A program made the position numbers and the translations under genes. Below the pieces are notes generated by a model. The model saw only the letters and a program-made list of their open reading frames with translations. It did no database searches and had not been told where the DNA came from. From assembly GCA_964291295.2 (NCBI GenBank), contig OZ219754.1:3456001-3520000 (forward strand): 64,000 nt of DNA, written 5' to 3'. The first letter of the stretch is position 1. Each line of letters starts with the position of its first letter. Positions 2,879 through 18,553 of the stretch are shown here, piece by piece. The stretch comes from an uncultured Candidatus Binatia bacterium. GTDB lineage: Bacteria; Desulfobacterota; Binatia; UBA9968; JAJDTQ01.

Positions 2879-3703
2879 ATGACGATCCCGGAACTCGAAG
2901 CCCTGGCCAGGGACATCAGAGTCGAAGTGATCCGCATGCTGGTGGAGGCGGGCTCCGGCCATCCGGGCGGCTCGCTGTCGTGCACCGACATGGTGACGGC
3001 GTTGTACTTCCACCAGATGCGCCACCGGCCGGACCAGCCGGATTGGCCCGACCGCGACCGGTTCGTGCTCTCCAAGGGCCACTGCGTGCCGGCCGTGTAC
3101 GCCGCCCTGGCCCGGGCCGGCTACTTTCCGCGGGAGGAGATGCGGACCCTGCGCAAGCTCGACAGCCGCATCCAGGGACACCCGGACCGCCACCGCTTCC
3201 CGTATCTGGAGGCCTCCACCGGCTCTCTGGGACAGGGACTGTCGGTGGCCCTGGGGATGGCTCTGGCGGGCAGGACCAGCGGCCGGGACTACCGCGTCTA
3301 CTGCATCATCAGCGACGGCGAGTGCCAGGCCGGACAGATCTGGGAGGCGGCCATGGCCGCGCCCCGGTTCCATCTCGACAATCTCTGTGTGCTTGTGGAC
3401 TACAACCACATCCAGTTGAGCGGCGGCGTGGACGACATCATGAGCCTGGAGCCGCTGCCGGACAAGTGGCGCGCGTTCAACTGGAACGTGCTGGAAATCG
3501 ACGGACACAGCTTCCCGGCCCTGCTCGAGTCGCTGGCGGCCGCGGCGCAGCATCGTGACGGCCCCACGGTCATCGTTTGCCAGACCGTCAAGGGCAAGGG
3601 GGTGAGCTTCATGGAGAACCGTTGGGAGTGGCACGGCAAGGCCCCCGGCCGCGAGGAAGGCGAACGCGCCATCGCCGAGATCGTCGACGGAGCAAACGCA
3701 TGA
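2879..3703 (+). CDS. Split transketolase, N-terminal TPP-binding subunit
   Basis: SGHPGGSLS, DRFVLSKGH, TGSLGQG, SDGECQAG. Confidence 0.92.
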   Translation: MTIPELEALARDIRVEVIRMLVEAGSGHPGGSLSCTDMVTALYFHQMRHRPDQPDWPDRDRFVLSKGHCVPAVYAALARAGYFPREEMRTLRKLDSRIQGHPDRHRFPYLEASTGSLGQGLSVALGMALAGRTSGRDYRVYCIISDGECQAGQIWEAAMAAPRFHLDNLCVLVDYNHIQLSGGVDDIMSLEPLPDKWRAFNWNVLEIDGHSFPALLESLAAAAQHRDGPTVIVCQTVKGKGVSFMENRWEWHGKAPGREEGERAIAEIVDGANA

Positions 3704-4623
3704 GCGCCACCGCAACACGCGTCACCTTCGGCGAGACCGTGACCCGGCTGGCCGACACCCATCCGGACATCGTGGTGCTGGACGCCGACCTGCGGAAGTC
3801 CACCATGACCGACGCGTTCTCCCGGAAGCATCCGGACCGGTTCTTCGACGTGGGCATCGCCGAGGGGAACATGGTGGGCATCGGCGCGGGCATGGCCCTG
3901 GCGGGCAAGATCCCCTTCATCTGCAGCTTCGCCTGCTTCGTGGTGGGCCGCTTCGAGCAGATCCGCATGGCCGTGGCCTACAACCGCGCCAACGTCAAGA
4001 TCGTCGGCACCCACGCCGGCATCGGCATCGGCGAGGACGGCTACAGCCAGATGGCGACCGAAGACATGGGGCTGATGCGCACCCTGCCGAACATGGCCGT
4101 GGTGCAACCCGCCGACGCCATCGAGACCCGCGGCGCCGTGGAGTATATCACGCGGCACGACGGACCCGTGTTCCTGCGGCTCACCCGCCAGAAGGTGGCC
4201 GACGTCAACGGCGCGGATTACGAATTCCGGTTCGGCAAGGCAGTGGTACTCCGGGAAGGCACCGACGTGTCGCTGTTCGGGACCGGTGCCGTGATGGAGA
4301 ACGCGCTCAAGGCCGCCGACCTGCTGGCCGACCGGGGCATCCAGGCCCAAGTGGTCAACATCCACACCATCAAACCCATCGACACCGACTTCATCTCGTC
4401 CGTCGCCTCGGGGCACGGCAGGATCGTGACCGTCGAGGACCACGGGATCTCGGGCGGCCTCGGCAGCGCCGTGGCCGAAACCGTGGCCGAACTCGGCCGC
4501 GGACGCGTCCGGCGCGTGGGCGTCACCGAGTTCGCCGAGTCCGGCGACACCGAGGGGCTCTACGCCAAGTACGGACTGTCCGCCGGGCACATCAGCGCCG
4601 CGGCGGTGGAATTGATGGGTTAG
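3700..4623 (+). CDS. Split transketolase, C-terminal subunit
   Basis: GIAEGNMVG, GEDGYSQMA, EDHGISGGLGS; ATGA overlap with the N-terminal subunit gene. Confidence 0.92.
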   Translation: MSATATRVTFGETVTRLADTHPDIVVLDADLRKSTMTDAFSRKHPDRFFDVGIAEGNMVGIGAGMALAGKIPFICSFACFVVGRFEQIRMAVAYNRANVKIVGTHAGIGIGEDGYSQMATEDMGLMRTLPNMAVVQPADAIETRGAVEYITRHDGPVFLRLTRQKVADVNGADYEFRFGKAVVLREGTDVSLFGTGAVMENALKAADLLADRGIQAQVVNIHTIKPIDTDFISSVASGHGRIVTVEDHGISGGLGSAVAETVAELGRGRVRRVGVTEFAESGDTEGLYAKYGLSAGHISAAAVELMG

Positions 4624-4964
4624 CAGCCTGTCGGACTTGGGGGGTTCTGGGCCGAAGCTTGCTCTTGCCGGACCGCGTCGCACCTGCCGACTCTTGGCCC
4701 TCGTACACGGCCTTCGCCCGGCGCTCCAACTCCGCACACGCCCTGTCCAGCTTCGCCTTCAGCGTCTTCCGCCGTCTCAACTGCCTCCGGCAGCCCCTGC
4801 CGGTCCGTCTCCGCGTCCGCTCGTTCCGCGCGACCCATCAACTCTCCTGTCTCCCTACGCAGTCGCTCGCGCAACTCCACCGCCCGGTCGTAACGAATCC
4901 CCTTGCGCTTGTTCGCGTTCGCACCCATCTGCATGCCGTCCACGCTCACCGTCCCTACCTTCAC
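4621..4964 (-). mobile_element. Internally deleted, frameshifted IS1182-like transposase remnant with probable IS end
   Basis: VGTVSVDG..GANANKRKGIRYDRA and LKAKLDRACAELERRAKA in two frames; minus-strand end AAGTCCGACAGGCTGCTA abuts the transketolase TAG. Confidence 0.6.
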
Positions 4965-5140
4965 TCCAGAACATGGAACGTTCCGAAGTTCTTGATCACA
5001 ACTTTTTCACCTCGCGACAGGGCATCCGATATGTGGCGCAGGATGCCCTCGACCAGGTGATCGCAATCTTTGCGCTGTACCTGAGAAGCCTGGAACACCG
5101 CCTGGCTCAAGTTGGATCTGGTTACAGTTTTTCCGCCCAT
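4961..5140 (-). pseudogene. ihfA: Truncated integration host factor alpha-like (HU/IHF) gene
   Basis: MGGKTVTRSNLSQAV...ISDALSRGEKVVIKNFGTF; stops at 59 aa, before the DNA-binding arm, at the IS remnant junction. Confidence 0.72.
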
Positions 5141-5801
5141 ACCCAAAGCCTCTGACCGCATTCAGCCGAACGGGCAGCAGCGCCAATCCGATTGAACCGC
5201 TATACCGCCGCGAAGGATCGAGCCGACACAAACATCCTTGCGTGCTCTGAGGCATGTGCGCTGTCTGGAACGGCTTTCTGAGCAGGGGAACTTTCTGAGC
5301 AAGGGAAGCCGGATAGGTCGAGATTTGTCTTACCCCGCCGGCGTGTTTGATTTCCGCGGGGTCCGGCGCGCCGCCCGGTGCGATGCGGCGACATCCTCGG
5401 GTCCGACACGGTCCACCGCATCCTGCCGAAGGCGGGCAGGATGCGGGTGCCCAACTCCGCCCGGCTCAGCCCCGCGCCGATGAGGACCGTTTCCCGACCG
5501 GTCCGCCTGAGGGCGTTGGACTGCAAGCTGCAAACAGGTGCGGGTCCGCTTTCCAGCGCCGTCGCCGGCAAGCAGTGAAGAGCCAGAAGGACAAGTGCGG
5601 CTGTTGCCTTGCGCGCCGGAAGTCAGGTGCAGGCCACAACAAGGCGTCCCGCGCCCCGCCCCCGCGATTGCGGGGCAAGAGGGGCGCGGGACCGTTCTCA
5701 CCATGACCGCCCCTGGACGCTCGCTTGCGCGCCCGCCGTCCCCATGGAGACTGCGGCTCCGGCTGTCGAGCGTGCGGGCAACTCGAAACCCGTTGTTGTT
5801 G

Positions 5802-7016
<1,215 letters not shown>

Positions 7017-7437
7017 CGATACACCGGGCCGCATGTTCGTAGCGGCGCCGGTCGAGATAGCCCAGGTCCCGGGCCGCACGGCACAGGAAACGCAGCTTTT
7101 CGAGACCGAGGTTCGCGCGCGCCAGATGGCCTGCCCGGCTGCGCGTGTATGTGGCCTCGACCAAGCTTTCCAGCACGTCCAGGGCCACGCCCTGCATACG
7201 GTCCCCCAGCAGAAACTTCTGGCTTCTCGGGAAGCGCTCCAGAACCGGAACCAGCCACAGTACGAAACGGTAATGGGCTTCCAGCGCCGGCCCGGTCTCC
7301 CGCGCGCCATCCCCCTTCCGAGGGCCCGCCGGCCTCTCGCCCGTTCCATCCGGATTCGTCGTCACGGCTCAAGCGAGTGCCTTCGCAAACCCGACAGGAC
7401 CCGCCTCCGGATACGAAAGCCGGGAACCCCAAAAAGC

Positions 7438-7460
7438 GTCCGGGGGCTACGCCCCCGGAC
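7438..7460 (-). promoter_or_regulatory. DGR target-recognition hairpin/cruciform downstream of VR
   Basis: Perfect GTCCGGGGGC-GTA-GCCCCCGGAC on the minus strand, 23 nt after the target stop. Confidence 0.85.
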
Positions 7461-7483
7461 CCCCGAGGTAAGGAGGTAAAGAC

Positions 7484-9229
7484 TCAAGGGGCAAGCGTCC
7501 GGGCAACTCGAAACCCGATGTCGTCGTCACGGTCTCCGGCGCCGTTCTTGATGCGGATCGCGGACCGGAGGTACCCCGGAGAGTTGAACCAGGAACCGCC
7601 CCGCAACACGCGGCGACCGCGGCGACTGCAATCGCCGCCGCTCGTCCAGGCGCTTCCATCCGATGGCGCTCCCGCATAGTCGCCATGCCAGCAGTCCTCC
7701 ACCCACTCCCACACATTCCCATGCATGTCGTGCAGGCCGAAACCGTTCGCCGAAAAGGAACCAACCGGCGCCGTTTGCTTGTTACCCCAGCGACTGCCGC
7801 AGTCATGGCAGTTAGCACGGCCCTGACCGATCGAATCACCCCAGTGGTAGCGGCTCCATGTCCCCGCGCGCGCCGCATATTCCCACTCCGCCTCCGTCAG
7901 CAGGCGGTAGCGCTGACCGGTCTTCTCCGACAGCCAACGAACGTACGCCTGTGCATCCTTCCAGTTGACGCACACGACCGGGTCGCGATCCGTCTGCCGG
8001 AACCCGGGATTGTCCCAGCAGGAATTGCGCATGGCGTGGCCGGTAGCTTCGACGAACTTCCCGAACTCGCCGCGCGTCACCTCGTATTTGCCCACCGCAA
8101 AGGACTCCGCTATCGTCACCCGGCGCTGCGGGCCTTCGTCCCTGTCGCGTCCCTTTTCCGAAGCCGGCGAGCCCATGGTGAAAGAACCCGCCGGAACGAC
8201 CACCATCTCCGGGCATTCCGGGCAATCGTGGAACTCCTTTCCCGGAGGGAAAAGGCTCGCTACTGTCTTGCCTCCAGGTCCCTTGATCGAGGCGTCCGCA
8301 CCACCTTTCATCAGCAAGTCGATTATCTCGTCATGCCCGTGCACCGCCGCCATGAACAGCGCCGTCGCCCCGTCCGCCAAGCGTATGTCGGGATCCGCGC
8401 CGGCCTCCAGCAGATGCGGAACCAGCAGCGTGTAACCCTTGTCCACCGCGAGCATCAGGGGCGTCCAGCCGCGGGCGTCCCGGACGTTGACGTCCGCTCC
8501 CGTCGCCAGCGCCGCCTTCAGCCCGTCGACATCGCCCGCATTCACCAGCCGGTGCAGGTCGACGGGAGGTGGGGCGGGCCTGCGCTCTGCCGGGGCTTCG
8601 GTGACATTCCGGCCCCCGGCTGCGGTGCGCATCGCGCGCAGGGCCCCCGGGGTCAACATGTCGCCCGGCGGCATGCCCGTGTCCCGCAGGAACGCCGCAT
8701 AGGCCCGTCCGGTCTGCGGACCCCAGTGCCCGTCGGGCGGTCCGGGCCTGTAGCCGAGCGCGGCCAGGAGCGCCTGCGCCTCCCGGACCGCCCGTGGCGG
8801 CGGCCCGGCGGGAGATTCCGCAGCCGGAGCGTCCCCGGTGGACGGGCGGCTGGCGGTCGGCGCGCCCCGGCTCCGCCAAGCCCGCGCGAGCTTGCGCGCC
8901 TCGGCCCGCTCCCCGGCCGTCATGTCCTCCGCCAGCGCGTCGCGTTCCGCCGCCGCCTCAACACTGCCGAGACCCGCAGCGAGGTTCAGCCACTTGTGCG
9001 CCTCGACATAGTCCTGGGGAACGCCGAGACCCTTCACATGGGCCCGGCCCAGCGCCAGCATGGCGCGCGCGTCGCCCGTCTCCGCCGCCGCTCCCCATTG
9101 CGCCAGCGCCTCGGCGGTTCGGCCCGCATCCCACGCCGTCTGTCCCGCCTCGAAATCCGCCCGCGCGGCCGCGCCGCACGACAATATCGCCGCCAGGCAG
9201 CAGACGGCCAAGACTGCGTTCCGATACAT
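7484..9229 (-). CDS. DGR target: secreted Sel1 + peptidoglycan-binding + ankyrin + FGE-sulfatase (CLec-fold) protein
   Basis: GGAGG then MYRNAVLAVCCLAA signal peptide; GLGVPQDYVEAHKW; AQALLAALGY.PGPPDGHWGPQT; GWTPLMLA and GATALFMAA; CPECPEMVVVPAG, RLLTEAEWEYAAR, DMHGNVWEW. Confidence 0.92.
   Translation of the reverse strand: MYRNAVLAVCCLAAILSCGAAARADFEAGQTAWDAGRTAEALAQWGAAAETGDARAMLALGRAHVKGLGVPQDYVEAHKWLNLAAGLGSVEAAAERDALAEDMTAGERAEARKLARAWRSRGAPTASRPSTGDAPAAESPAGPPPRAVREAQALLAALGYRPGPPDGHWGPQTGRAYAAFLRDTGMPPGDMLTPGALRAMRTAAGGRNVTEAPAERRPAPPPVDLHRLVNAGDVDGLKAALATGADVNVRDARGWTPLMLAVDKGYTLLVPHLLEAGADPDIRLADGATALFMAAVHGHDEIIDLLMKGGADASIKGPGGKTVASLFPPGKEFHDCPECPEMVVVPAGSFTMGSPASEKGRDRDEGPQRRVTIAESFAVGKYEVTRGEFGKFVEATGHAMRNSCWDNPGFRQTDRDPVVCVNWKDAQAYVRWLSEKTGQRYRLLTEAEWEYAARAGTWSRYHWGDSIGQGRANCHDCGSRWGNKQTAPVGSFSANGFGLHDMHGNVWEWVEDCWHGDYAGAPSDGSAWTSGGDCSRRGRRVLRGGSWFNSPGYLRSAIRIKNGAGDRDDDIGFRVARTLAP
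7494..7617 (-). repeat. DGR variable repeat (VR) at the 3' end of the target gene
   Basis: Reads RRVLRGGSWFNSPGYLRSAIRIKNGAGDRDDDIGFRVART; 15 A-to-N changes relative to TR. Confidence 0.95.
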
Positions 9230-9251
9230 CCGTTGTCTCCCCTCCGAAACC

Positions 9252-10835
9252 CTAATACGAACAATTCCAGGTGCCATCGCTGCCGCGCCAGGGAGTGCCG
9301 CCCGCACCGCAATCGAAACACCACGTGCCACCGGCGTCGGTAAGAAGAACGCCGCTCACGCCACAAGTAATGGCTGCCCCCCTGAGCCGGTCCTGACGTT
9401 CCCGTTCCCGTTGTTCCCGGTTCTGCTGCAAGATCAGCTGGAGCTGTCGTTCCTGTTCCTGTCGGACCCTTTCCTGCCGGGCCTGTTCCTGTTGTTGCTC
9501 CCGATAGGCCTGCCGCTGCCGGTCCCGGGCCTGCTGCAAGATCAGTTGTTCCTGTCGGGCCTGTTCCCGTTGAGCTCTTTCCCGTGCCCTTTCCTGTTGA
9601 CGGTCCCGGGTCTGCTGCAACATCTGCAGGTTCCGTCTTATCTGGTGCACGCTTTCGTTGAGGCGCCGCCTGCTGTCTTCGGCGCGCCGCCGGTTGTCTT
9701 CGCGGATCCTCTCCTTTTCGCGGATACTCTCCATCTCTATGGCGTGTAATTCCTCGCGCCAGCGCCTGTCGGCGGCCGCCTCTGCCTGCCTCCGTGCCTC
9801 CTCGGCCGCATGGGCGGCAGCCATCTCTGCCTGCCTCCGTGCCTCCTCGGCCGCATGGGCGGCAGCCATCTCTGCCTGCCTCCGCGCCTCCTCGGCCGCA
9901 CGGGCGGCAGCCGCCTCTGCCTGCCTCCGCGCCTCCTCCGCGCGACGGTCGGCCTCCAGCTTTTCCAGCGCCCTTGCATACCCGGCCGGCTGAGGCCCCC
10001 GGCCCGGCACGCCAGTCAGCGCCTTCTCGTAGTTCGACGGGCCGGTTTGACTCACCGGCGCCGCCCGGGTCTCCGCCGCCTCCGGCGCCCAAGGGTCCCC
10101 GGCAGCCCGGGCCGCCGCGCTCGCTCCCTCGCCCCTTTCGCCCCACGGGTCGTCCGGCTGCGCCCACGGGTCCTGCCCGTCTTCACGCGCCTTCTCCGCC
10201 CCCGGCGCCGCCGCCGGCATGTTCGAGACAGTTTCGTTGCGCCGCCACGCCGGGTCGCGGGGGAGCCCCTGCTCGCGGACGATCCGGCGCATCCGGTAGG
10301 GCAGCATGTCCAAGTGGAGCTCTGCTTCCTGCTCCTGCCACCTGGCCTCGAAGCGCCGTTCGATTGCGGCAACGACCTTCGGCGCGATCAGGCTGGATCC
10401 GGCCGCGCGTCCCAGATCCCACGCGGCGAGGGCGTGGCTGACAAGTGGAGAGTAACTCCGCGCCGCCACGACCGGAAGGGCCCAACGCTTGCCCAGCTTC
10501 TTCAGCACGGGACCCAGGGACTTCGTCTTCTCCAGCTTCTTCCAGGCCACCTCCCCCACTTTCCACATTGCCCGCTCGGCCTTGTGGGCCGCCTTGCGCA
10601 CCATCATGTCGTCCACGGGGGACCGTTCGGCACTCTCCCGGCCCTGCGGCTTCCCGTCTGCGTGCGGATTCCTCTTGTCCAGATCCCGGGCCGCGGCCCT
10701 CAGGAGGTTTGTCGCGAAGGATTCCAACGTGAACCCGTGCGCCGGAACCGCCGCAACGGAGACCGCCGCCAGCGTCAGGACGGTCGCACAGGCGCAGACC
10801 GGGTTTGCCAAGGCGCGCGCGTGTCTTGCGAACAT
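9252..10835 (-). CDS. Putative secreted coiled-coil protein with Cys-rich C-terminus
   Basis: AAGGAG SD; hydrophobic N-terminus ending AHG; long E/Q/R/A-rich helix; C-terminus TCGVSG..WCFDCG..WNCSY. Confidence 0.72.
   Translation of the reverse strand: MFARHARALANPVCACATVLTLAAVSVAAVPAHGFTLESFATNLLRAAARDLDKRNPHADGKPQGRESAERSPVDDMMVRKAAHKAERAMWKVGEVAWKKLEKTKSLGPVLKKLGKRWALPVVAARSYSPLVSHALAAWDLGRAAGSSLIAPKVVAAIERRFEARWQEQEAELHLDMLPYRMRRIVREQGLPRDPAWRRNETVSNMPAAAPGAEKAREDGQDPWAQPDDPWGERGEGASAAARAAGDPWAPEAAETRAAPVSQTGPSNYEKALTGVPGRGPQPAGYARALEKLEADRRAEEARRQAEAAAARAAEEARRQAEMAAAHAAEEARRQAEMAAAHAAEEARRQAEAAADRRWREELHAIEMESIREKERIREDNRRRAEDSRRRLNESVHQIRRNLQMLQQTRDRQQERARERAQREQARQEQLILQQARDRQRQAYREQQQEQARQERVRQEQERQLQLILQQNREQRERERQDRLRGAAITCGVSGVLLTDAGGTWCFDCGAGGTPWRGSDGTWNCSY
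9781..9939. repeat. 45-bp coding tandem repeat, about 3.5 copies (EEARRQAEMAAAHAA)
   Basis: Units start at 9781, 9826, 9871, 9916. Confidence 0.9.
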
Positions 10836-10839
10836 CTCC

Positions 10840-11898
10840 TTATCCCTCCTTTTGCCGGGCGGCATCGGCCGCCCCGATCGTGTCGAGAAGCGAAACGATG
10901 ACGATGCGGCGCAGCGAACACGCCGCTCCCTCCAGCCGGCACTGGACCAGGAAATAGACCTGACCGTCCTCGGGCAGAGACCCGATCAGCAACCGCCGGT
11001 CCGCTCCGGCATCCAGGACCATGTCGAGAACGAGCCGGGCCGCCAGACCTTCGGGCAGGTCCGCCACCGCCTGCGCCGTCGCCGGGTCGGTCGCGGGCGC
11101 CGCCGCCGTCACCGCGCCGGCATCGCCCGAGGACAGCGCAGCCGTCACCCTGGCGAGGGTCGGACGCAGCCACGCCCGGGCGTCCGATGTCCAGCCGGCG
11201 CGCTGGCGCGCATCCCGCAGCAGCCGCGGCAAGGCGGCGCGCGCCCGCTCAGCGTCTTCCGCAAAGCTGGCGGAGGTTTTCGCGGCGGATTGCGCCGCCG
11301 GCGGGTGCAGGCGATGGAATTCGGCCAGACGCGAGGCGGCGGCGACGGACAGCGCCTCGACCATCCCGGCATCGGCCTGCAGCCATGAAGGCGAGGGCCC
11401 CGCCGCGCGCGGCGGCGACCCGAAGCTCTCGCCGGGAAAGGCCCGGGCGGCGGCGACCCGCCAGCCATCGTCCTGCACCGCCCAGTGGGTGGCGACGGCG
11501 ACATCGAGCAGCGGGTTGTAGTAGAGCGCAACCGGCCCCGGCGAGCGGAGCCGGCCGAGCCCCACCATCGTGTTCCGGAAGAACGCCGGCCACATCCCGG
11601 GCGGGGCGCTGCGCGAGCCCCCCGGAATCCGGGACAGCACCGCGTACCCGCTCCCCTTGACGATGGCTGCCCGCAGGGCCAGCGCGTGCGCGGCGAAGAC
11701 GCGCGCGCCGTCATCGGTTTCCATCAGCCTTGCCACCGCTCGCGTGGCGGCGACCACGAGGCTCGCCGTTACGGCGGAAGCCGATACGCCGCTCGCCAAA
11801 CCCGGCTTCCGTTCCAGGGCCACCGTCGCCGGCGGACAGGCCACAAAGACGATGGCCAGCATCGCAGCCGCACCCGACACAAGCCCGACCCGGTTCAT
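10840..11898 (-). CDS. Putative secreted hypothetical protein
   Basis: MNRVGLVSGAAAMLAIVFVA signal-like start; globular body (YYNPLLDVAV); ends 4 nt before the next gene. Confidence 0.65.
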   Translation of the reverse strand: MNRVGLVSGAAAMLAIVFVACPPATVALERKPGLASGVSASAVTASLVVAATRAVARLMETDDGARVFAAHALALRAAIVKGSGYAVLSRIPGGSRSAPPGMWPAFFRNTMVGLGRLRSPGPVALYYNPLLDVAVATHWAVQDDGWRVAAARAFPGESFGSPPRAAGPSPSWLQADAGMVEALSVAAASRLAEFHRLHPPAAQSAAKTSASFAEDAERARAALPRLLRDARQRAGWTSDARAWLRPTLARVTAALSSGDAGAVTAAAPATDPATAQAVADLPEGLAARLVLDMVLDAGADRRLLIGSLPEDGQVYFLVQCRLEGAACSLRRIVIVSLLDTIGAADAARQKEG

Positions 11899-11959
11899 GT
11901 GCTTTGCCGGCTCCCGCCGCCGCGCGCGCACGGTCCGCACGATCACACCGTCTGCCCGG

Positions 11960-12490
11960 CAGTTACCGGCGGCCAGCACCTCGTCGAGGCTCGCCGCCAC
12001 CAGCACCGCATCCGCCCAGGCCTCCAGTTCGGCTGCCGACGCACCGCGGACCCGCTCGCGGACCGCATCCGGCACATCACCGAAGCGCAACTCCAGAAGG
12101 CGAAGAAGGATCCCGGCCTGGCCCTCGCTCCGGCCTCGTTCGACTCCCTGTCCGATCCAGGCTTGCGCCACCGTGCCCATCAGCGCCTCCCAGCGGTCCG
12201 GCGCAGCGACGCCTCCAGCAACGGCGGCGTCAGGTTCATGCGCTCGGCAATGTAACGCACAATATGACACTCGAAACTCGAAAGCGCTCCCCGCAACCGG
12301 CCCGCCCGTCATCTCGTCGAGAAGCTCCGGCGGAATCTCCTCGGCATGGACAACCTTGAGCGCCAGAAGACCGGCCCGCACCTCGGGCGAGACCGACAGC
12401 CGGCGTGGCGCAATCTCCCCAAGGTCGTGCACCACATGGGCAAACTCCCTGACGAAAAGCTCCAGTTCCCCGGGCGCGTCGATCATCCCC
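11960..12490 (-). pseudogene. Rpn/YhgA-like transposase C-terminal fragment with DUF4351-like tail
   Basis: HVVHDLGEI..., MGTVAQAWIGQGVERGRSEG, LLRLLELRFGDVPDAVRERVRGASAAELEAWADAVL. Confidence 0.65.
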
Positions 12491-12492
12491 GG

Positions 12493-12637
12493 CCGAGGGC
12501 TGGACACGGATGCCGAAGCCGGTGAGGCGGTCGTCCCAGGCGATGAAGGGTTTATGCCCGGGCTTGAGCACTTCGACGTTGCGCTTGTTGAGGGTGAGCT
12601 TGAGGTTGGCGGTGCGCTTGCCGGGCTCTGTTGACAT
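12493..12637 (-). pseudogene. N-terminal arm-binding (DUF4102-like) fragment of a tyrosine integrase
   Basis: LTLNKRNVEVLKPG..FIAWDDRLTGFGIRVQPS, then an abrupt junction. Confidence 0.7.
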
Positions 12638-13101
12638 GATGACATTCCGCCGAAAAGGGCTCGAATATCCCTATACAGGTCAACACATGGAAGTCAACCG
12701 GAGGGCATCCGCGTCGCGCCATGTCTCCTGGGTCAGCCTTTATTCCATTGAAATACAACAATATCCCTGGACGGCTGATACTATGGACAGACAGGCTTGT
12801 GATAGACTCCCAGAACCTTCGGACAGAGCGCCACATGACTGTCGCCCTCGCGTTCGACGTCAAGCGTCTGTTCATCCCTTGCCTCCCGTACCGGGCCTGC
12901 TGGCTTCCGCATCGTGCAAGAACCAGGCGACAGGGTACAGTGCGATACGAAGCGCCTCTCCCGATCAGTCCTTGCCCTCCCATACCCCAGGGAAGCTCTC
13001 GAAAAAAGGCCCCTCGTCCGCTCCGTGACTCATGCCTCCAAGACTATCCGAAGCCGCGGAGACAAGTCGGCGCAATTCACAATCACCCGGAATCACCACC
13101 C

Positions 13102-13207
13102 AGTTCGTCAAGTAGTTCGTCAAGTAATTCGTCAAGCAATCCCGGCGTGGGATTGTCCGGTCGCACGGCCAGACGCATCGTGACATTGGCATCGTGACAA
13201 TGGCATC
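13102..13207. repeat. Short direct repeats: 3x12 bp (AGTTCGTCAAGT) and about 2.4x14 bp (GCATCGTGACAWTG)
   Basis: Units at 13102, 13114, 13126 and at 13175, 13189. Confidence 0.8.
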
Positions 13208-13299
13208 CTGGTCGCCTCATGATGACTCGTGGCTTGCCCGTGCGATTCAACCTCCAATGAACCCGGCGGTTCATCCCGGGTCTCGCGCGGCGGGAAGAT

Positions 13300-13682
13300 G
13301 GCGGATACGGGGCCTTGCTTGATCACCTGCTGTCGGTGCCGCTTGATGACTTTGACCCGCGAAGGATCCTGGAAACAAGCGCCTTGCGGGATCCAATGGC
13401 CTTCAGTCTGGACCCGGTGCCCGCGTGGTGGCTCGACAAGCTGCGAGATGGGCAAGTTGAGCTTGGGAAGGGTTGGCCGGAGACCGTCACGACCAACAGC
13501 CTGTTCAAGGATTATCTGACCTATGCCGACGATATGCGCATCAATGGCGGGCGACGATGCGCAACTTCGGTCAAAAGCTGACCAGGTTGGGCGTGGTTCG
13601 GAAGCGGGTGCGCGTCGGGGTGCTGTTCGACTACTGCCATACCATCCCGCCGTTGAGTGAGGCGCGGGAGCGGTGGGAATAG
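13300..13682 (+). pseudogene. Frameshifted C-terminal fragment of a phage/plasmid primase-helicase
   Basis: ALLDHLLSVPLDDFDPR..SLDPVPAWWLDKL continued in another frame by RNFGQKL...IPPLSEARERWE. Confidence 0.6.
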
Positions 13683-13835
13683 GTCCACGGACCGGAAGAC
13701 CGGGTCAGGGAAGGTCTGAACAACCCCGAGTTGGCTGGGACTGAATCAATGGAATCAACAGGTTGCGAGCAGCTCCCTGTCGCGCCGCCGCCTTGTTCGG
13801 ACCTTCCTTGGGCGGCGCCGGTCGCGCGCGCGGGC

Positions 13836-14447
13836 TCAGCCGGAGGCCGGTGGCGGCTCCTCGGACGGCTCCTCTCCGGTGCCCGGCGAGAGTTCGTTCG
13901 CCTCCCCTGACGGCGTCTCGGCGGGGGCCGGTCCGACCCCCGCCGAGACGGCCTCCGCCTGACCCCCGGCAGCGGCTGATTCCACTGCGCCGCCCGGCGG
14001 CTGATCCTCCGACACCACCCTTACCCGGATGTTCGGCATCACTTCCGGACGGAGACGGACGGCAACCTCGTAGTCGCCCACCGCCTTGATGGGAGCTTCC
14101 AGGACGATCCGGCGACGCTCCACCTCGAAGCCCCGCTCCTTCAACGCCTTCTCGATGTCAAGGCTTGTGACGGAGCCGAAGAGCCTTCCCTCCTCGCCCA
14201 CCTTGGCGGCGAACTCGAGGGATACGCCGGCCAGCTTCGCGCTGATGCCCTCGGCCTCCTTGGTGAGGCGCTCCCGGCGCTGGCCGATCATGCGCTGCTG
14301 GTGCTCCAGCGCCTTCAGGTTCTTCTTGTTGGCCGGCACCACCAGGCCCCGGGGCAACAGGTAGTTGCGGGCGTAACCATCCCTGACCTTCACCACGTCG
14401 CCCATGTGGCCCAGGTTTTCAATGTCCTCCCTCAGAACGACTTCCAT
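13836..14447 (-). CDS. rplI: 50S ribosomal protein L9 with acidic tail
   Basis: LGHMGDVVKVRDGYARNYLLP, GRLFGSVT. Confidence 0.96.
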   Translation of the reverse strand: MEVVLREDIENLGHMGDVVKVRDGYARNYLLPRGLVVPANKKNLKALEHQQRMIGQRRERLTKEAEGISAKLAGVSLEFAAKVGEEGRLFGSVTSLDIEKALKERGFEVERRRIVLEAPIKAVGDYEVAVRLRPEVMPNIRVRVVSEDQPPGGAVESAAAGGQAEAVSAGVGPAPAETPSGEANELSPGTGEEPSEEPPPASG

Positions 14448-14457
14448 CGAATCTCCT

Positions 14458-15402
14458 TCAGGTCAGGCCCGCGGTGCGTCGCTTGAGACGACGAAAGTCG
14501 CCCCAGAGGTCGAAGAACCCCAAGCCGATGACCAGCACCGTGAGAATCTGCTCGAAGACGATGAGCAGGTATCCCAGAACGCGAAAAAACATCGGCACCT
14601 TCTTGTGATGAAAATAGTACGCCACGATGGCGAGGCCGTGGAAGAAATAGAACACGGTGCATACGAACACCACGTTCACGGCCAGTGCGCGCAAGGTCCA
14701 GCCCAGGGGTAGAAACAGCGCCAAGGCAGGCACCAGCAACAGCCACACCATGTGGTCCGGCGACTTCCACTCCTTGAGGTCTCCGGCCTCGAAGAAAAAC
14801 GAGCGATACTGCGGGAAGTGCCACGACAGCAGGGCCAGGTTGACCAGCACCATCACCCCCAGAGTCAGGAAAGCCATGCCGGGCAGCATCTGGACGAAGA
14901 GCGCCGCCATCTGCCCCGCATGTTCCCTGAGGAAGTCGATGGTGTCGCCCGACAGACCCATGCGCCGGTACGCTTCCAGGACCGTGAGAATCTGGGCCTG
15001 AACGCCCGCCTGCAGCGTCGTCCACAGGGCGGAGAACGAGCCGGCAAACGCCGTCGCGGCCACCAGCATGACCGCCACCGTGCAGATGGCATTGCCGCTC
15101 ACCACCTTGGCGAGGGACCATCCCCGCCCGAACGAGAAGAACAGCAGATACGCCACCAGTGCCAGCATCAGGCAGGACACCGCCCCTTCCAGCCCGGCGA
15201 CGGGATAGACGCATGCCGCCGCCGCCACCGGCAGCAACTGTCCCGGCCGTCTCCCCACCTTGACGCCGACGAACAGGGCCGGATAGAGGACGAGCGGCAC
15301 CGCGGCCAAGCCGAGGATCGGCACCCGCAAACCCACGAAAAAAAGCAGCAGGGTGGCGACCAACCCGAGCCCGAACCACTTCAGAGTGTCAAGCCCATTC
15401 AT
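14458..15402 (-). CDS. DUF2232/YybS family membrane protein
   Basis: Multi-TM; YFFHGLAI, GLGFFDLWGDFRRL; usual position between rpsR and rplI. Confidence 0.85.
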   Translation of the reverse strand: MNGLDTLKWFGLGLVATLLLFFVGLRVPILGLAAVPLVLYPALFVGVKVGRRPGQLLPVAAAACVYPVAGLEGAVSCLMLALVAYLLFFSFGRGWSLAKVVSGNAICTVAVMLVAATAFAGSFSALWTTLQAGVQAQILTVLEAYRRMGLSGDTIDFLREHAGQMAALFVQMLPGMAFLTLGVMVLVNLALLSWHFPQYRSFFFEAGDLKEWKSPDHMVWLLLVPALALFLPLGWTLRALAVNVVFVCTVFYFFHGLAIVAYYFHHKKVPMFFRVLGYLLIVFEQILTVLVIGLGFFDLWGDFRRLKRRTAGLT

Positions 15403-15484
15403 AAGCTGACCAGTCGTGACCCGCGAAGGCAGAAAGAGTCCGCACCATGCCGCGAATGTCACAGGCCGCGCGGAAGACGCCGGA

Positions 15485-15763
15485 TCAGAGCTTTACGGTG
15501 GTATAGGGGAGTAACGCTACCAGACGAGACCGCTTGATGGCCCTGGACAGGCGCCGCTGGCACCAGCAACAGGTCCCGGTGATGCGGCTCGGCGTGATCT
15601 TGCCCCGCTCCGTCATGAATCCGCTGAGGAGCTTGGTATCCTTGTAGTCGAAGCGGAGGTCCTTGTTGGCACAGAAGCGACAGATCTTCCGGCGCGAAAT
15701 GCCGCGCCGGCGAGGTGACGAATCACGATCTTCCGAGCCTCTTCTCCCGTGATATTCAGCCAT
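15485..15763 (-). CDS. rpsR: 30S ribosomal protein S18
   Basis: [21 protein letters not shown]. Confidence 0.96.
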
Positions 15764-15805
15764 GTTTCCCTTGGTCGTCCCGCCCGCTGTCCGCGGCGGA
15801 AGCCC

Positions 15806-16219
15806 TTACGCTTCGGAGCCTTCCCGGGTTTCCTCGGCAGGTTCCGGCGCGGTTTCCTGTTCCGGTGCGGTTTCCTGTTCCGGCGAGGACACGGGATCTT
15901 CCGTCCGGGCCAAGGACCGCACGTCCTTGTCCAGGACCACGGTCATGCAACGCATGACCTCGTCGCTCAAACGCATCAGCCGCTCGAACTCCTCGCTGGT
16001 TCCCGCCGTAGCCCTGTACTGAACCAGGTTGTAGAAACCCCTTCCCTGCTTCTCGATGGAGTAGGCGAGATCGCGCATGCCCCATTCCTCGAAATGGGTG
16101 ATGGTCGCGCCGCGCCCTTCCAGAACCTCCCGATACTTCTCGCAGAGTTCCTTGTTCCTGCCGCTGTGAGCCGGGTGAACGATGAAGAGCGTTTCGTAAT
16201 GGGTCGTTTCGTCAGTCAT
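15806..16219 (-). CDS. rpsF: 30S ribosomal protein S6
   Basis: YETLFIVHP, WGMRDLAYSIEK. Confidence 0.95.
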   Translation of the reverse strand: MTDETTHYETLFIVHPAHSGRNKELCEKYREVLEGRGATITHFEEWGMRDLAYSIEKQGRGFYNLVQYRATAGTSEEFERLMRLSDEVMRCMTVVLDKDVRSLARTEDPVSSPEQETAPEQETAPEPAEETREGSEA

Positions 16220-16504
16220 GGTTCGTCGAGTCCGGAGAACCTCATCAATGGCCGATTGATGGCCGATTGATGGCCGATGGCTGTCTGGCCGGTGTCATGA
16301 GTCGAAATGGCATCGCAACGACATCCAGAACGATATCGAAGCAGTGGCCTCCGAACGGCATTCAAACAGCCAGGTCGCAACCAGAAATGGCAACCGAAAG
16401 TGGCAACCGGAGGGCGCCTCCGGGGACGCCCATGAAGGATGCCGTTTCAGTGCACCGGAGCGAGTCAACCTAGCACAGGGACTGCCTGTTTACAACCCTC
16501 GGGC

Positions 16505-18553
16505 TCAAACCAGCAGTGGCGCGATGACCAGCGAAACCACCGACATGAGCTTGATGAGGATGTTCATGGACGGGCCGGAGGTGTCCTTGAGGGGATCGCC
16601 CACGGTGTCGCCGACCACGGCCGCCTTGTGCGCCTCGCCGCCCTTCTCCTCGTTTCGGAGGTCGCCGCGCTCGATGTACTTCTTGGCGTTGTCCCAGGCA
16701 CCGCCGGCGTTGGACATGAGCAGCGCCAGCAGCACGCCCGAGACCAGTGCCCCGGCCAGCGTCCCGCCCAGTGCCACCGGCCCCAGCGCGAAACCCACCA
16801 CCACCGGCACCACCACCGCCACCAGCCCCGGCACCACCATCTCCTTGATGGCCGCTCGGGTGGAGATGTCCACGCAACGGGCCGCGTCGGGCTTGACGCC
16901 CTCCCGGCCTTCCAGCAGACCGGGGATCTCGCGGAACTGCCGGCGGATCTCGTCGATCATTCGTCCGGCGGCCCGTCCCACCGCGGTCATGGTCATGGCG
17001 CCGATGAGGTACGGGATGAGGCCGCCGATGAACAGGCCCACCACCACCTCCGGCGAGGTCACCAGAATCTGCACCGGCGGTTGGCCCATGGCCGCCAGCT
17101 CGGTATCCACCGTCCGGGTATAGGCCGAGAACAGCGCCAGTGCGGTCAAGGCCGCCGACCCGATGGCGAAACCCTTGCCAATGGCCGCCGTGGTGTTGCC
17201 CAGCGAGTCGAGCCCGTCGGTAATCTCGCGCACCTCGGACCCCAGGCCGCACATCTCGGAAATGCCGCCGGCGTTGTCGGCAATGGGGCCGTAGGCATCC
17301 ACGCTCATGGTGATGCCCACCGTGGCCAGCATCGCCACCGCGGCCACGCCGATGCCGTAGAGCTGGGCCGCACCGTGGGACACCCAGATGGCGACGGCAA
17401 TGACCACCACCGGAGCCGCCACGCTCTCCAGACCCACCGCCAGCCCGTGGATGATGTTGGTGGCGTGGCCCGTGCGGCTGGCCTCGGCGATGCGTTCCAC
17501 CGGCTTGGCGGAAGTGTAGTACTCGGTGATGAGGCCGATGAGGATGCCTCCCAGAGAACCCGCCAGCACCGCCCAGAAGACGCCGATGGTGACGCCGCAG
17601 GCGAGGATGAGCACCAGCGCCGCCACCAGGAACAGCACCGTGGTAAGGACCGTCGCGCTGCGCAGCGCCGATTGCGGGTCGATCTTCTTGAACACGCGCA
17701 TGGAATAGATGCCCGCCACCGAGGCGATGAGGCCCAGCACCGCCAGGAGCAGCGGCAGCGCCATCAGCGTGGCCCTGGAGGCATCGGCCTGGGACGAGAA
17801 CAGAGCGGCGAGCCCGCTCGGTGCGATGGTGCTGGCGATGGCGATGGACGCGATCACGGAGCCCACGTAGGACTCGAACAGATCCGCACCCATGCCGGCC
17901 ACATCGCCGACGTTGTCACCGACGTTGTCCGCGATGACGCCAGGATTGCGGGGATCATCTTCGGGAATGCCGGCCTCGACCTTGCCCACCAGGTCGGAGC
18001 CCACGTCCGCGGCCTTGGTGTAAATGCCGCCGCCGACACGGGAGAACAGGGCGATGGAGCTGGCGCCCATGGCGAACCCGCTGATGTACCTGGCGTTTCC
18101 CGGATCACCGTAAAGCAGAAACAGGACGCCGACGCCCAGCAGACCGAGGCTGGCCACCGAAAGGCCCATCACCGAGCCGCCGTTGAAGGCCATGAGCAGC
18201 GCTTCGGCCTGGCCGCCCTCCGAGGCCGCCTGGGTCGTGCGGACGTTGGCGCGGGTGGCCGCCTTCATGCCGAGAAAGCCGGCGATCACCGAGCATGCCG
18301 CGCCCGCGAAGAACGCCAGCGCGGTGGGAACCCCGAGCTGCCATGCCAGCAACAGCGCCACCACCACCACAAATACCGAAAGAACGATGTACTCGCGCTT
18401 CAGAAAGGCCATGGCGCCTTCGTAGATGGAGTCGCTGACGGACTCCATGCCGGCATCCTTGACACCGACCTTGACGATGCTGCCATACGCCAGGTACGCC
18501 ACAAGAAGTCCGGCCGCTCCCAGTATCGGAGCCCAGACCACCAAACCATCCAT
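16505..18553 (-). CDS. hppA: Membrane-bound ion-translocating pyrophosphatase, K+-dependent type
   Basis: [41 protein letters not shown]; SD GAGGAGG before ATG 18553. Confidence 0.93.

Follow-up and report, generated by a model that had tools for sequence, protein, structure and literature searches.

A gene pair recurring with the target of a diversity-generating retroelement points to an undescribed cell-envelope binding module

The window analyzed here, 64,000 nucleotides (nt) of an uncultured Candidatus Binatia genome (contig OZ219754.1), carries a diversity-generating retroelement (DGR) whose target gene stands third in a row of co-oriented genes, behind two genes of no named family that we call g1 and g2 (Table 1). 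Homologs of both recur beside one class of target, with a C-terminal domain of the FGE-sulfatase (FGE) type, and in some proteins the g1 and g2 cores are fused to the wall-binding domains that the target itself carries. The trio points to an undescribed cell-envelope binding module. In the reading that we favor, and to which we give about an even chance of being right, g1, g2 and the target are parts of a single modular binding system associated with the wall (periplasmic or envelope), and the lectin head is the only part that the DGR varies.

Linkage was surveyed with one genome per species, where two g1 peptide patterns located 26 loci in 23 metagenome-assembled genomes (MAGs). Neighborhoods of up to 10 kb on each side were searched by tblastn with the window proteins; rows with fewer than 40 aligned residues were dropped, and reverse transcriptase (RT) matches of 25-30% identity were excluded from the count of DGR RTs. 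An FGE-type match lies within this distance of g1 at 20 of the 26 loci, and at 19 loci there is in addition a long match to the Sel1, peptidoglycan-binding (PG_binding_1) and ankyrin part of the target. An avd gene and/or a DGR-type RT is near g1 at 9 of 26 loci, one of them having an avd fragment only. By tblastn, g2 is detected at 7 of 26 loci. Open reading frames (ORFs) were classed as g2-type by a signal-like N-terminus, a helical domain, D-P-W-type linker motifs, a Y..AL..L motif pair, an R/E/Q-rich helix and a Cys-containing end; such an ORF starts between -60 and +400 nt from the end of the g1 match at 19 loci, and L041, where an insertion sequence (IS) lies in between, brings the count to 20/26. 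The initial annotation of this locus had proposed looking for both proteins beside FGE-domain DGR targets elsewhere, and with a target-type gene within 10 kb and an adjoining g2-type gene each at 20 of 26 loci, the proposed co-occurrence is not refuted.

Target-like matches number 2-25 per genome in five survey genomes of 2.6-5.6 Mb, and the base rate of target-like genes is low by this estimate. Depositor labels of the MAGs are Alphaproteobacteria, Candidatus Binatia, Nitrospirales, Thermodesulfobacteriota, Chloroflexi, Gammaproteobacteria or just ‘bacterium’; they are not all independent, because MAGs labelled Binatia or Thermodesulfobacteriota belong to the window's genus in the genome grouping used here. 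The order g1-g2-target recurs at six loci (L018, L020, L028, L037, L038, L041). Adenine-specific pairs of template repeat (TR) and variable repeat (VR) were found at 4 of 26 loci. At L028, 16 of the 18 mismatches between TR (8874-8998) and VR (14161-14285) are at A, and g1-g2 is located between the DGR core and its VR-bearing target. The survey supports a real association of g1-g2 with the FGE target class.

Domain fusions suggest where these proteins act. Cores of g1 follow ankyrin repeats in P0008 and P0011 and PG_binding_1 in P0065 and P0074, while P0153 has Sel1 and PG_binding_1 ahead of a g2 N-domain with its helix, being the only Pfam-bearing protein among the 25 scanned of 43 g2 N-domain relatives. 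At L039, the VR (14 of 15 TR/VR mismatches at A) lies inside a 677-aa protein that joins a g2-type N-terminal part to SH3_3 and FGE. Because the cores of all three genes are fused to the same wall-binding anchors, they would be expected to act in one place, and this is the strongest argument for that; the same anchors, in the target and in the fusions, are why the wall or periplasm is preferred over the outer surface. Two apparent g1-FGE fusions (P0019, P0120) were not counted, since both seem to stem from gene calls with read-through or a frame shift. Separately, a Cys-containing domain with the motif (V/T)(I/L)RN.C(S/G) and no Pfam match is seen at the C-terminal end of some g2-type proteins and at the N-terminal end of a PG_binding-g1 fusion (L023, L032, P0065, P0139).

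The three genes of the window lie on the same strand, with 4 nt between the g1 stop and the g2 ATG and 22 nt between the g2 stop and the target ATG, as first annotated. Shine-Dalgarno sites, GGAGGG ending about 9 nt ahead of the g2 ATG and GGAGGGGAG ending about 8 nt ahead of the target ATG, are located inside the end of the preceding gene, and these are GGAGG-type sites of the strength that had been claimed for the second and third genes. From the short gaps and the terminator-like hairpin beyond the target we infer that g1, g2 and the target form one transcription unit with the target last. Signal-like N-termini, also claimed initially for g1 and g2, were judged by the crude measure of the top Kyte-Doolittle 12-mer, which reaches 2.74 in g1, 2.51 in g2 and 3.04 in the target, compared with 0.31-1.59 in L9, S6 and Avd.

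The three reading frames are supported by their GC content at third codon positions (GC3; g1 0.85, g2 0.79, target 0.80). These GC3 values of 0.79-0.85, conserved homologs and in-frame indels in a relative exclude g1 and g2 being spurious ORFs of high-GC DNA. A start of g1 farther upstream (a 601-aa ORF, database call P0004) was rejected, as the extra part is a DUF4351 fragment and close homologs start at the signal peptide.

The target is composed of a signal peptide, Sel1, PG_binding_1, three ankyrin repeats and a C-terminal, C-type-lectin-like FGE-sulfatase domain (PF03781 at 1.1e-64, residues 338-577), with the VR covering residues ~537-577. The downstream series of avd, RT and TR was recognized correctly at the outset: Avd scores 98.6 bits against NF033474 (cut-off 80) and 65.1 against PF22296 (cut-off 40), and the RT matches the generic RT models RVT_1 (1.2e-12) and phrog_1423 (1.1e-105). 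TR and VR (129 nt) differ by 20 mismatches, 15 of them at TR adenines; between positions 35 and 105 adenines account for 15 of 16 differences, and 14 of the 15 adenine differences fall on codon positions 1-2. A single VR and a single full target-type gene are present in the window's own genome. A 183-aa ORF at 5330-5881 was rejected as a gene, since it is the TR read in the target frame, giving the Asn-rich ‘NNKPGN...NRNNNNGFRVARTL’.

By these matches, avd, RT, TR and target constitute a canonical DGR. With the Avd-type (BPP-1 type) systems it shares a VR at the 3′ end of a lectin-fold/FGE target, avd, RT, an adenine-specific TR and a hairpin after the VR, whereas its target differs in being the third gene of a putative operon behind two conserved exported proteins. 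The hairpin is strong and terminator-like and lies just beyond the VR; we assume that it may correspond to the hairpin after the VR in other DGRs (the BPP-1 target-site hairpin), and it could be a terminator, that element, or both. A lipobox ends in a Cys after the signal h-region (PROSITE-style pattern), and a lipobox-like pattern fits the window target (Cys18) and does not fit the target homolog at L015.

Neither g1 nor g2 matches any family in Pfam, NCBIfam, PHROGs or PADLOC (0 families among its anti-phage defense models), in line with the initial annotation, which had recognized no family for either. For g1, a word-seeded search returned 133 proteins at E<=1e-3; among the matches listed none has a name beyond ‘hypothetical’, and nearly all are without a Pfam domain. 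An alignment of 34 members, chosen across the identity range from 120 of the 133 matches, has 39 invariant columns, including a YYNPLLD block, which lines a pocket, and Cys320 and Cys327 near the C-terminus. Of these 34 homologs, 27 have a hydrophobic segment at the N-terminus, and only 2 fit a lipobox-like pattern, one of them the window g1 (Cys21).

The AlphaFold2 (AF2) model of g1 built on that alignment (predicted local distance difference test score, pLDDT, 82; predicted TM-score 0.79) shows two consecutive modules, each with helices packed on a four-stranded curved sheet. Foldseek against the PDB gave nothing at E<=0.001 (best match E 0.019, top rows NTF2-like), and in a second structure search the C-terminal module (residues 235-341) matched NTF2-like chains with Z up to 7.7 and a root-mean-square deviation of 3.3 Å over 89 residues. 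The N-terminal module is taken to be NTF2-like from its similar secondary structure, and de novo designed NTF2 proteins match the C-terminal module equally well. At the sequence level, the g1 profile found nothing below E 0.4 among solved-structure sequences and g1 has no match to the NTF2-like families of Pfam; the best score in a protein atlas comparison, 0.87, is below the useful range. A tandem NTF2-like arrangement is the likely fold class, as far as the model goes, and no function follows from it. Among the matches, VirB8-like OrfG (8s7l), TraM (4ec6) and 3ub1 superpose on the C-terminal module with Z 6.6-7.5 over 92-97 residues, and OrfG has tandem modules as in the g1 model; unlike these scaffolds, to which it has no sequence relation, g1 has no conjugation or type IV secretion system genes nearby.

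The second protein, g2, begins with a signal peptide and a helical N-domain of basic character (aa 35-200; 33 K+R versus 20 D+E), followed by an acidic linker with three DPW-type motifs (aa 201-285), the long helix and, at the end, the Cys tip. The AF2 model has an uninterrupted helix over residues 286-486 (~200 residues, pLDDT ~84-96), a segment with 49 K+R, 42 D+E, 31 Q, 39 A and zero proline; outside this helix, the model shows a helical N-domain of low confidence, disorder over residues 220-285 and an uncertain tip. Four cysteines lie in the last 41 residues, and the tip varies among homologs. The 45-bp repeats, the helical stalk and the four-Cys tip had all been noted from the letters, and Tandem Repeats Finder (TRF), the AF2 helix and the composition of the C-terminus agree with them. 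Relatives of g2 are few: a word-seeded search with residues 30-310 found 8, and when 1.84 billion representatives were searched with an N-domain profile, 43 reached E<=1e-3, which indicates a rare family. Among the sequences of solved structures, the best matches to the N-domain profile, LysM-type chains, are not significant (E 0.14-0.29, ~25-30 residues).

The sequences classed as g2-type fall into two N-domain groups. What the two groups share is limited to the linker motifs and the pair of motifs that precedes the helix; a simple pattern finds the Y-motif pair immediately ahead of the charged helix in 17 of 26 g2-type sequences. In P0142, a group-A N-domain is joined to a linker motif typical of group B.

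Domain II of TolA is a helical rod that spans the periplasm. Like it, g2 has a long uninterrupted Ala/Glu/Arg/Gln-rich helix in an exported envelope protein, and it differs from TolA in a cleavable-looking signal, the lack of an evident membrane anchor and a Cys-rich tip. Searches of Pfam and NCBIfam gave no TolA or TonB family for g2 (TolA at E<=0.1), and no YadA-type barrel as would be expected of a trimeric autotransporter adhesin, the C-terminus being the 41-aa Cys tip.

In the mechanism that we propose, all three products would be exported through the inner membrane. The target would be tethered to peptidoglycan via PG_binding_1 and present a DGR-diversified lectin-fold head. The g2 protein could serve as a spacer or rod able to carry different heads; an alpha-helix rises 0.15 nm per residue, and ~200 residues would span ~30 nm. 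The g1 protein might be an NTF2-type partner, either a ligand-binding protein or an assembly factor. The three proteins may be in physical contact, on which a complex prediction with g1 residues 45-342 and g2 residues 33-305 (score 0.15, mark 0.32) favors neither side.

The module sits on an island of ~9.3 kb between transketolase and rplI, and in three other genomes of the genus the distance between these flanks is 0.9, 2.5 and 3.9 kb. The closest copy, with the same gene order, is in an Alphaproteobacteria-labelled MAG (L018), at identities of 77% for g1, 79% for avd and 82% for RT; copies from the genus itself are less similar (g1 45-54%, RT 72-76%). The best explanation for this pattern appears to be that the g1-g2 pair moves horizontally together with this target class.

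One possible alternative is that g1 and g2 are an independent envelope pair, present on the same mobile islands as this DGR class but not working with the target, a possibility that we regard as somewhat unlikely. Remnants of mobile elements, which would suit it, abound around these loci. In L018, an IS21-type element with an IstB match (15272-17613) splits the target gene; at L041, a DDE transposase (11229-14231) lies between g1 and g2; L015 has a PIN gene; and g2 of L018 and L019 appears frame-shifted. Elsewhere in the window's own genome (L002, G000:C1:2242591-2245716, at ~1457-1620 and 1165-1449), what is left of a g1 C-terminus (64-71% identity) precedes a g2-like signal peptide, next to genes for a HigB-like toxin and an HTH_3 protein. 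Upstream of g1, the DUF4351 fragment and the DNA ahead of it (11784-12700) have a summed contig depth 10-300x that of neighboring genes in all three sequencing runs, and this segment is hence many-copy in the community.

Several further observations weigh against a joint function, and linkage on mobile islands can arise without one. Gene order varies, with g1 after RT/TR in L028, L032 and L035, and g1 and target are convergent in L026, L027, L030, L031 and L040, divergent placement also occurring; this variable placement of g1 speaks against a fixed operon design. No FGE match lies within 10 kb of g1 at 6 of 26 loci (L023 is a short contig), and g1 or g1-g2 stands without a target in that range in L019, L024, L025 and L042. 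Among 27 other genomes of the genus, g1 was found in G006, G014, G019, G020 and G027, with a weak match in G026, and Avd exceeds the cut-off in G006, G010, G014, G026 and G027: G019 and G020 thus have g1 and no Avd over the cut-off, and G005 and G010 (the latter also with Avd) have FGE-type targets but no g1 with this query. The structural evidence is also soft, as an NTF2-like fold is uninformative on g1 function, Z values below 8 are common among unrelated models, and the models of the g2 N-domain and tip are of low confidence. Finally, hhalign gave a probability of 45% over 13 columns between the two g2 N-domain groups, that is, no detectable homology.

Set against mere co-travel are the fusions, in which each of the three cores is joined to the same PG-binding anchors and a g2 scaffold to a variable FGE domain, the gaps of 4 and 22 nt with Shine-Dalgarno sites within the preceding gene ends, and linkage in MAGs of five to six higher-taxon labels. 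A wall-associated system built of all three proteins remains the reading that we prefer.

The initial annotation had instead proposed an outer-surface complex, with the g2 stalk and g1 displaying the hypervariable receptor outward and repeat-number changes acting as a second switch, and this we consider quite unlikely. Signal peptides on all three proteins, the long helix and Cys-rich tip of g2, and the L039 fusion of a g2 scaffold to a variable domain would suit it. The DGR targets TvpA of Treponema and LdtA of Legionella are surface lipoproteins, and the window target resembles this class in being exported and in its C-terminal diversified FGE-type lectin fold. It differs in its N-terminal part of Sel1, PG_binding_1 and ankyrin repeats, which suggests a wall tether and not a surface lipid anchor. 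Together with the PG-binding fusions of g1 and g2, PG_binding_1 points to the peptidoglycan layer or periplasm and away from surface display, and in none of the three proteins did Pfam or NCBIfam detect a family of outer-membrane anchors, beta-barrels or secretion systems.

The proposed second switch was examined in assembled contigs from three runs (X1, X2 and X3) of one study. The repeat has a period of 45, 3.5 copies and 96% matches by TRF, encoding 15-aa units. Contigs of X1 are identical to the window and break inside it. In X2, a contig of 3588 nt with three further differences is shorter by exactly one 45-nt unit at 9779->9825, but 60 nt fit both sides of the joint and repeat collapse in assembly is as likely as a real allele. 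A relative in X3 (~90-93% alike) has 202 nt in place of 289 nt of the helix and changes of +24 and -21 nt in the linker, all in frame. As these alignments indicate, g2 does change in length over evolution; the in-frame differences, and the missing X2 unit if it is a real allele, would suit repeat number as a second source of variation. For the VR, no near-identical contig of X2 covers it, the sole piece differing at 74 letters and belonging to a relative.

That g1 and g2 are retrohoming accessory factors like Avd is extremely unlikely: avd/RT lies nearby at 9 of 26 loci, whereas retrohoming is cytoplasmic and both proteins bear export signals, g1 has a conserved Cys pair, 11 of the 20 loci where an FGE-type gene is near have no avd/RT within 10 kb, and Pfam and NCBIfam give no nucleic-acid-binding family for either protein.

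Table 1. Features of the DGR locus (positions in the 64,000-nt window)
Feature	Positions	Strand	Remarks
g1	10840-11898	-	352 aa; stop TAA 10840-10842
g2	9252-10835	-	527 aa; ATG 10835, stop TAG 9252-9254
DGR target gene	7484-9229	-	581 aa; ATG 9229
avd accessory gene	6943-7365	-	Pfam and NCBIfam matches
DGR reverse transcriptase	5802-7034	-	start uncertain (ATG 7034 or 7016); listed ORF extends to 7349
VR	7494-7622	-	3′ end of target gene
TR	5769-5897	-	overlaps 3′ end of RT ORF
GC-rich hairpin, 10-bp stem and T-run	7438-7460	-	24 nt past target stop
g2 long-helix region, residues 286-486	9378-9980	-	AF2 model and composition
45-bp tandem repeat in g2 helix	9780-9938	-	TRF
g2 C-terminal tip, 41 aa, four Cys	9255-9377	-	composition; variable among homologs
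DUF4351 fragment, in frame upstream of g1	11980-12141	-	PF14261, 1.2e-8; not part of g1
Island of ~9.3 kb holding whole module	4628-13966	.	transketolase and rplI flanks

Some features at the edges of the island are recorded here as side observations. Beside the TR, an ORF of 66 aa (4961-5161) is HU/IHF-like, matching positions 2-52 of 90 of Bac_DNA_binding, and is possibly truncated. The ORF at 12236-12637 resembles an integrase N-terminus by eye and has no Pfam or PHROG match. A segment of about 110 nt just outside rplI (13705-13822) occurs in at least 11 further copies at 81-88% identity in the same genome and resembles a small dispersed repeat. From translations only, the transketolase (2879-4623) is apparently two adjacent genes for the N- and C-terminal halves.

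The locus can be compared with what has been described for DGRs. Passages of Wu et al. (2018, PMC5758913) give a DGR scheme with the order avd-RT-TR, list avd, HRDC, MSL and CH1 (plus PAG1-4) as accessory genes, and state that genes nested between DGR parts are not conserved among DGRs. Against Pfam, g1 and g2 have no HRDC or MutS-type match. Our literature search, which did not extend to the supplementary tables of Wu et al. that list DGR-nested genes, found nothing on the g1-g2 pair or on this target architecture, and the words ankyrin, peptidoglycan and Sel1 are absent from the main texts (supplements excluded) of PMC5758913, PMC8144416 and PMC10907252.

A bolder version of the wall-associated reading is that the locus encodes one horizontally transferred, peptidoglycan-anchored apparatus, in which lectin head, ~30 nm rod and NTF2-type partner capture or neutralize changing foreign molecules at the wall, e.g. 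wall-directed proteins of a host or phage. We consider this unlikely; if true, such an apparatus would amount to envelope-resident anticipatory recognition.

To our knowledge, neither partners nor a function are known for most cellular DGR targets. The locus described here is a defined three-gene unit, in which two unnamed families recur with one DGR target class across very different taxon labels, and it adds two candidate families to the annotation of DGR neighborhoods. It also opens concrete and cheap experiments on the partners and location of a non-phage DGR target.

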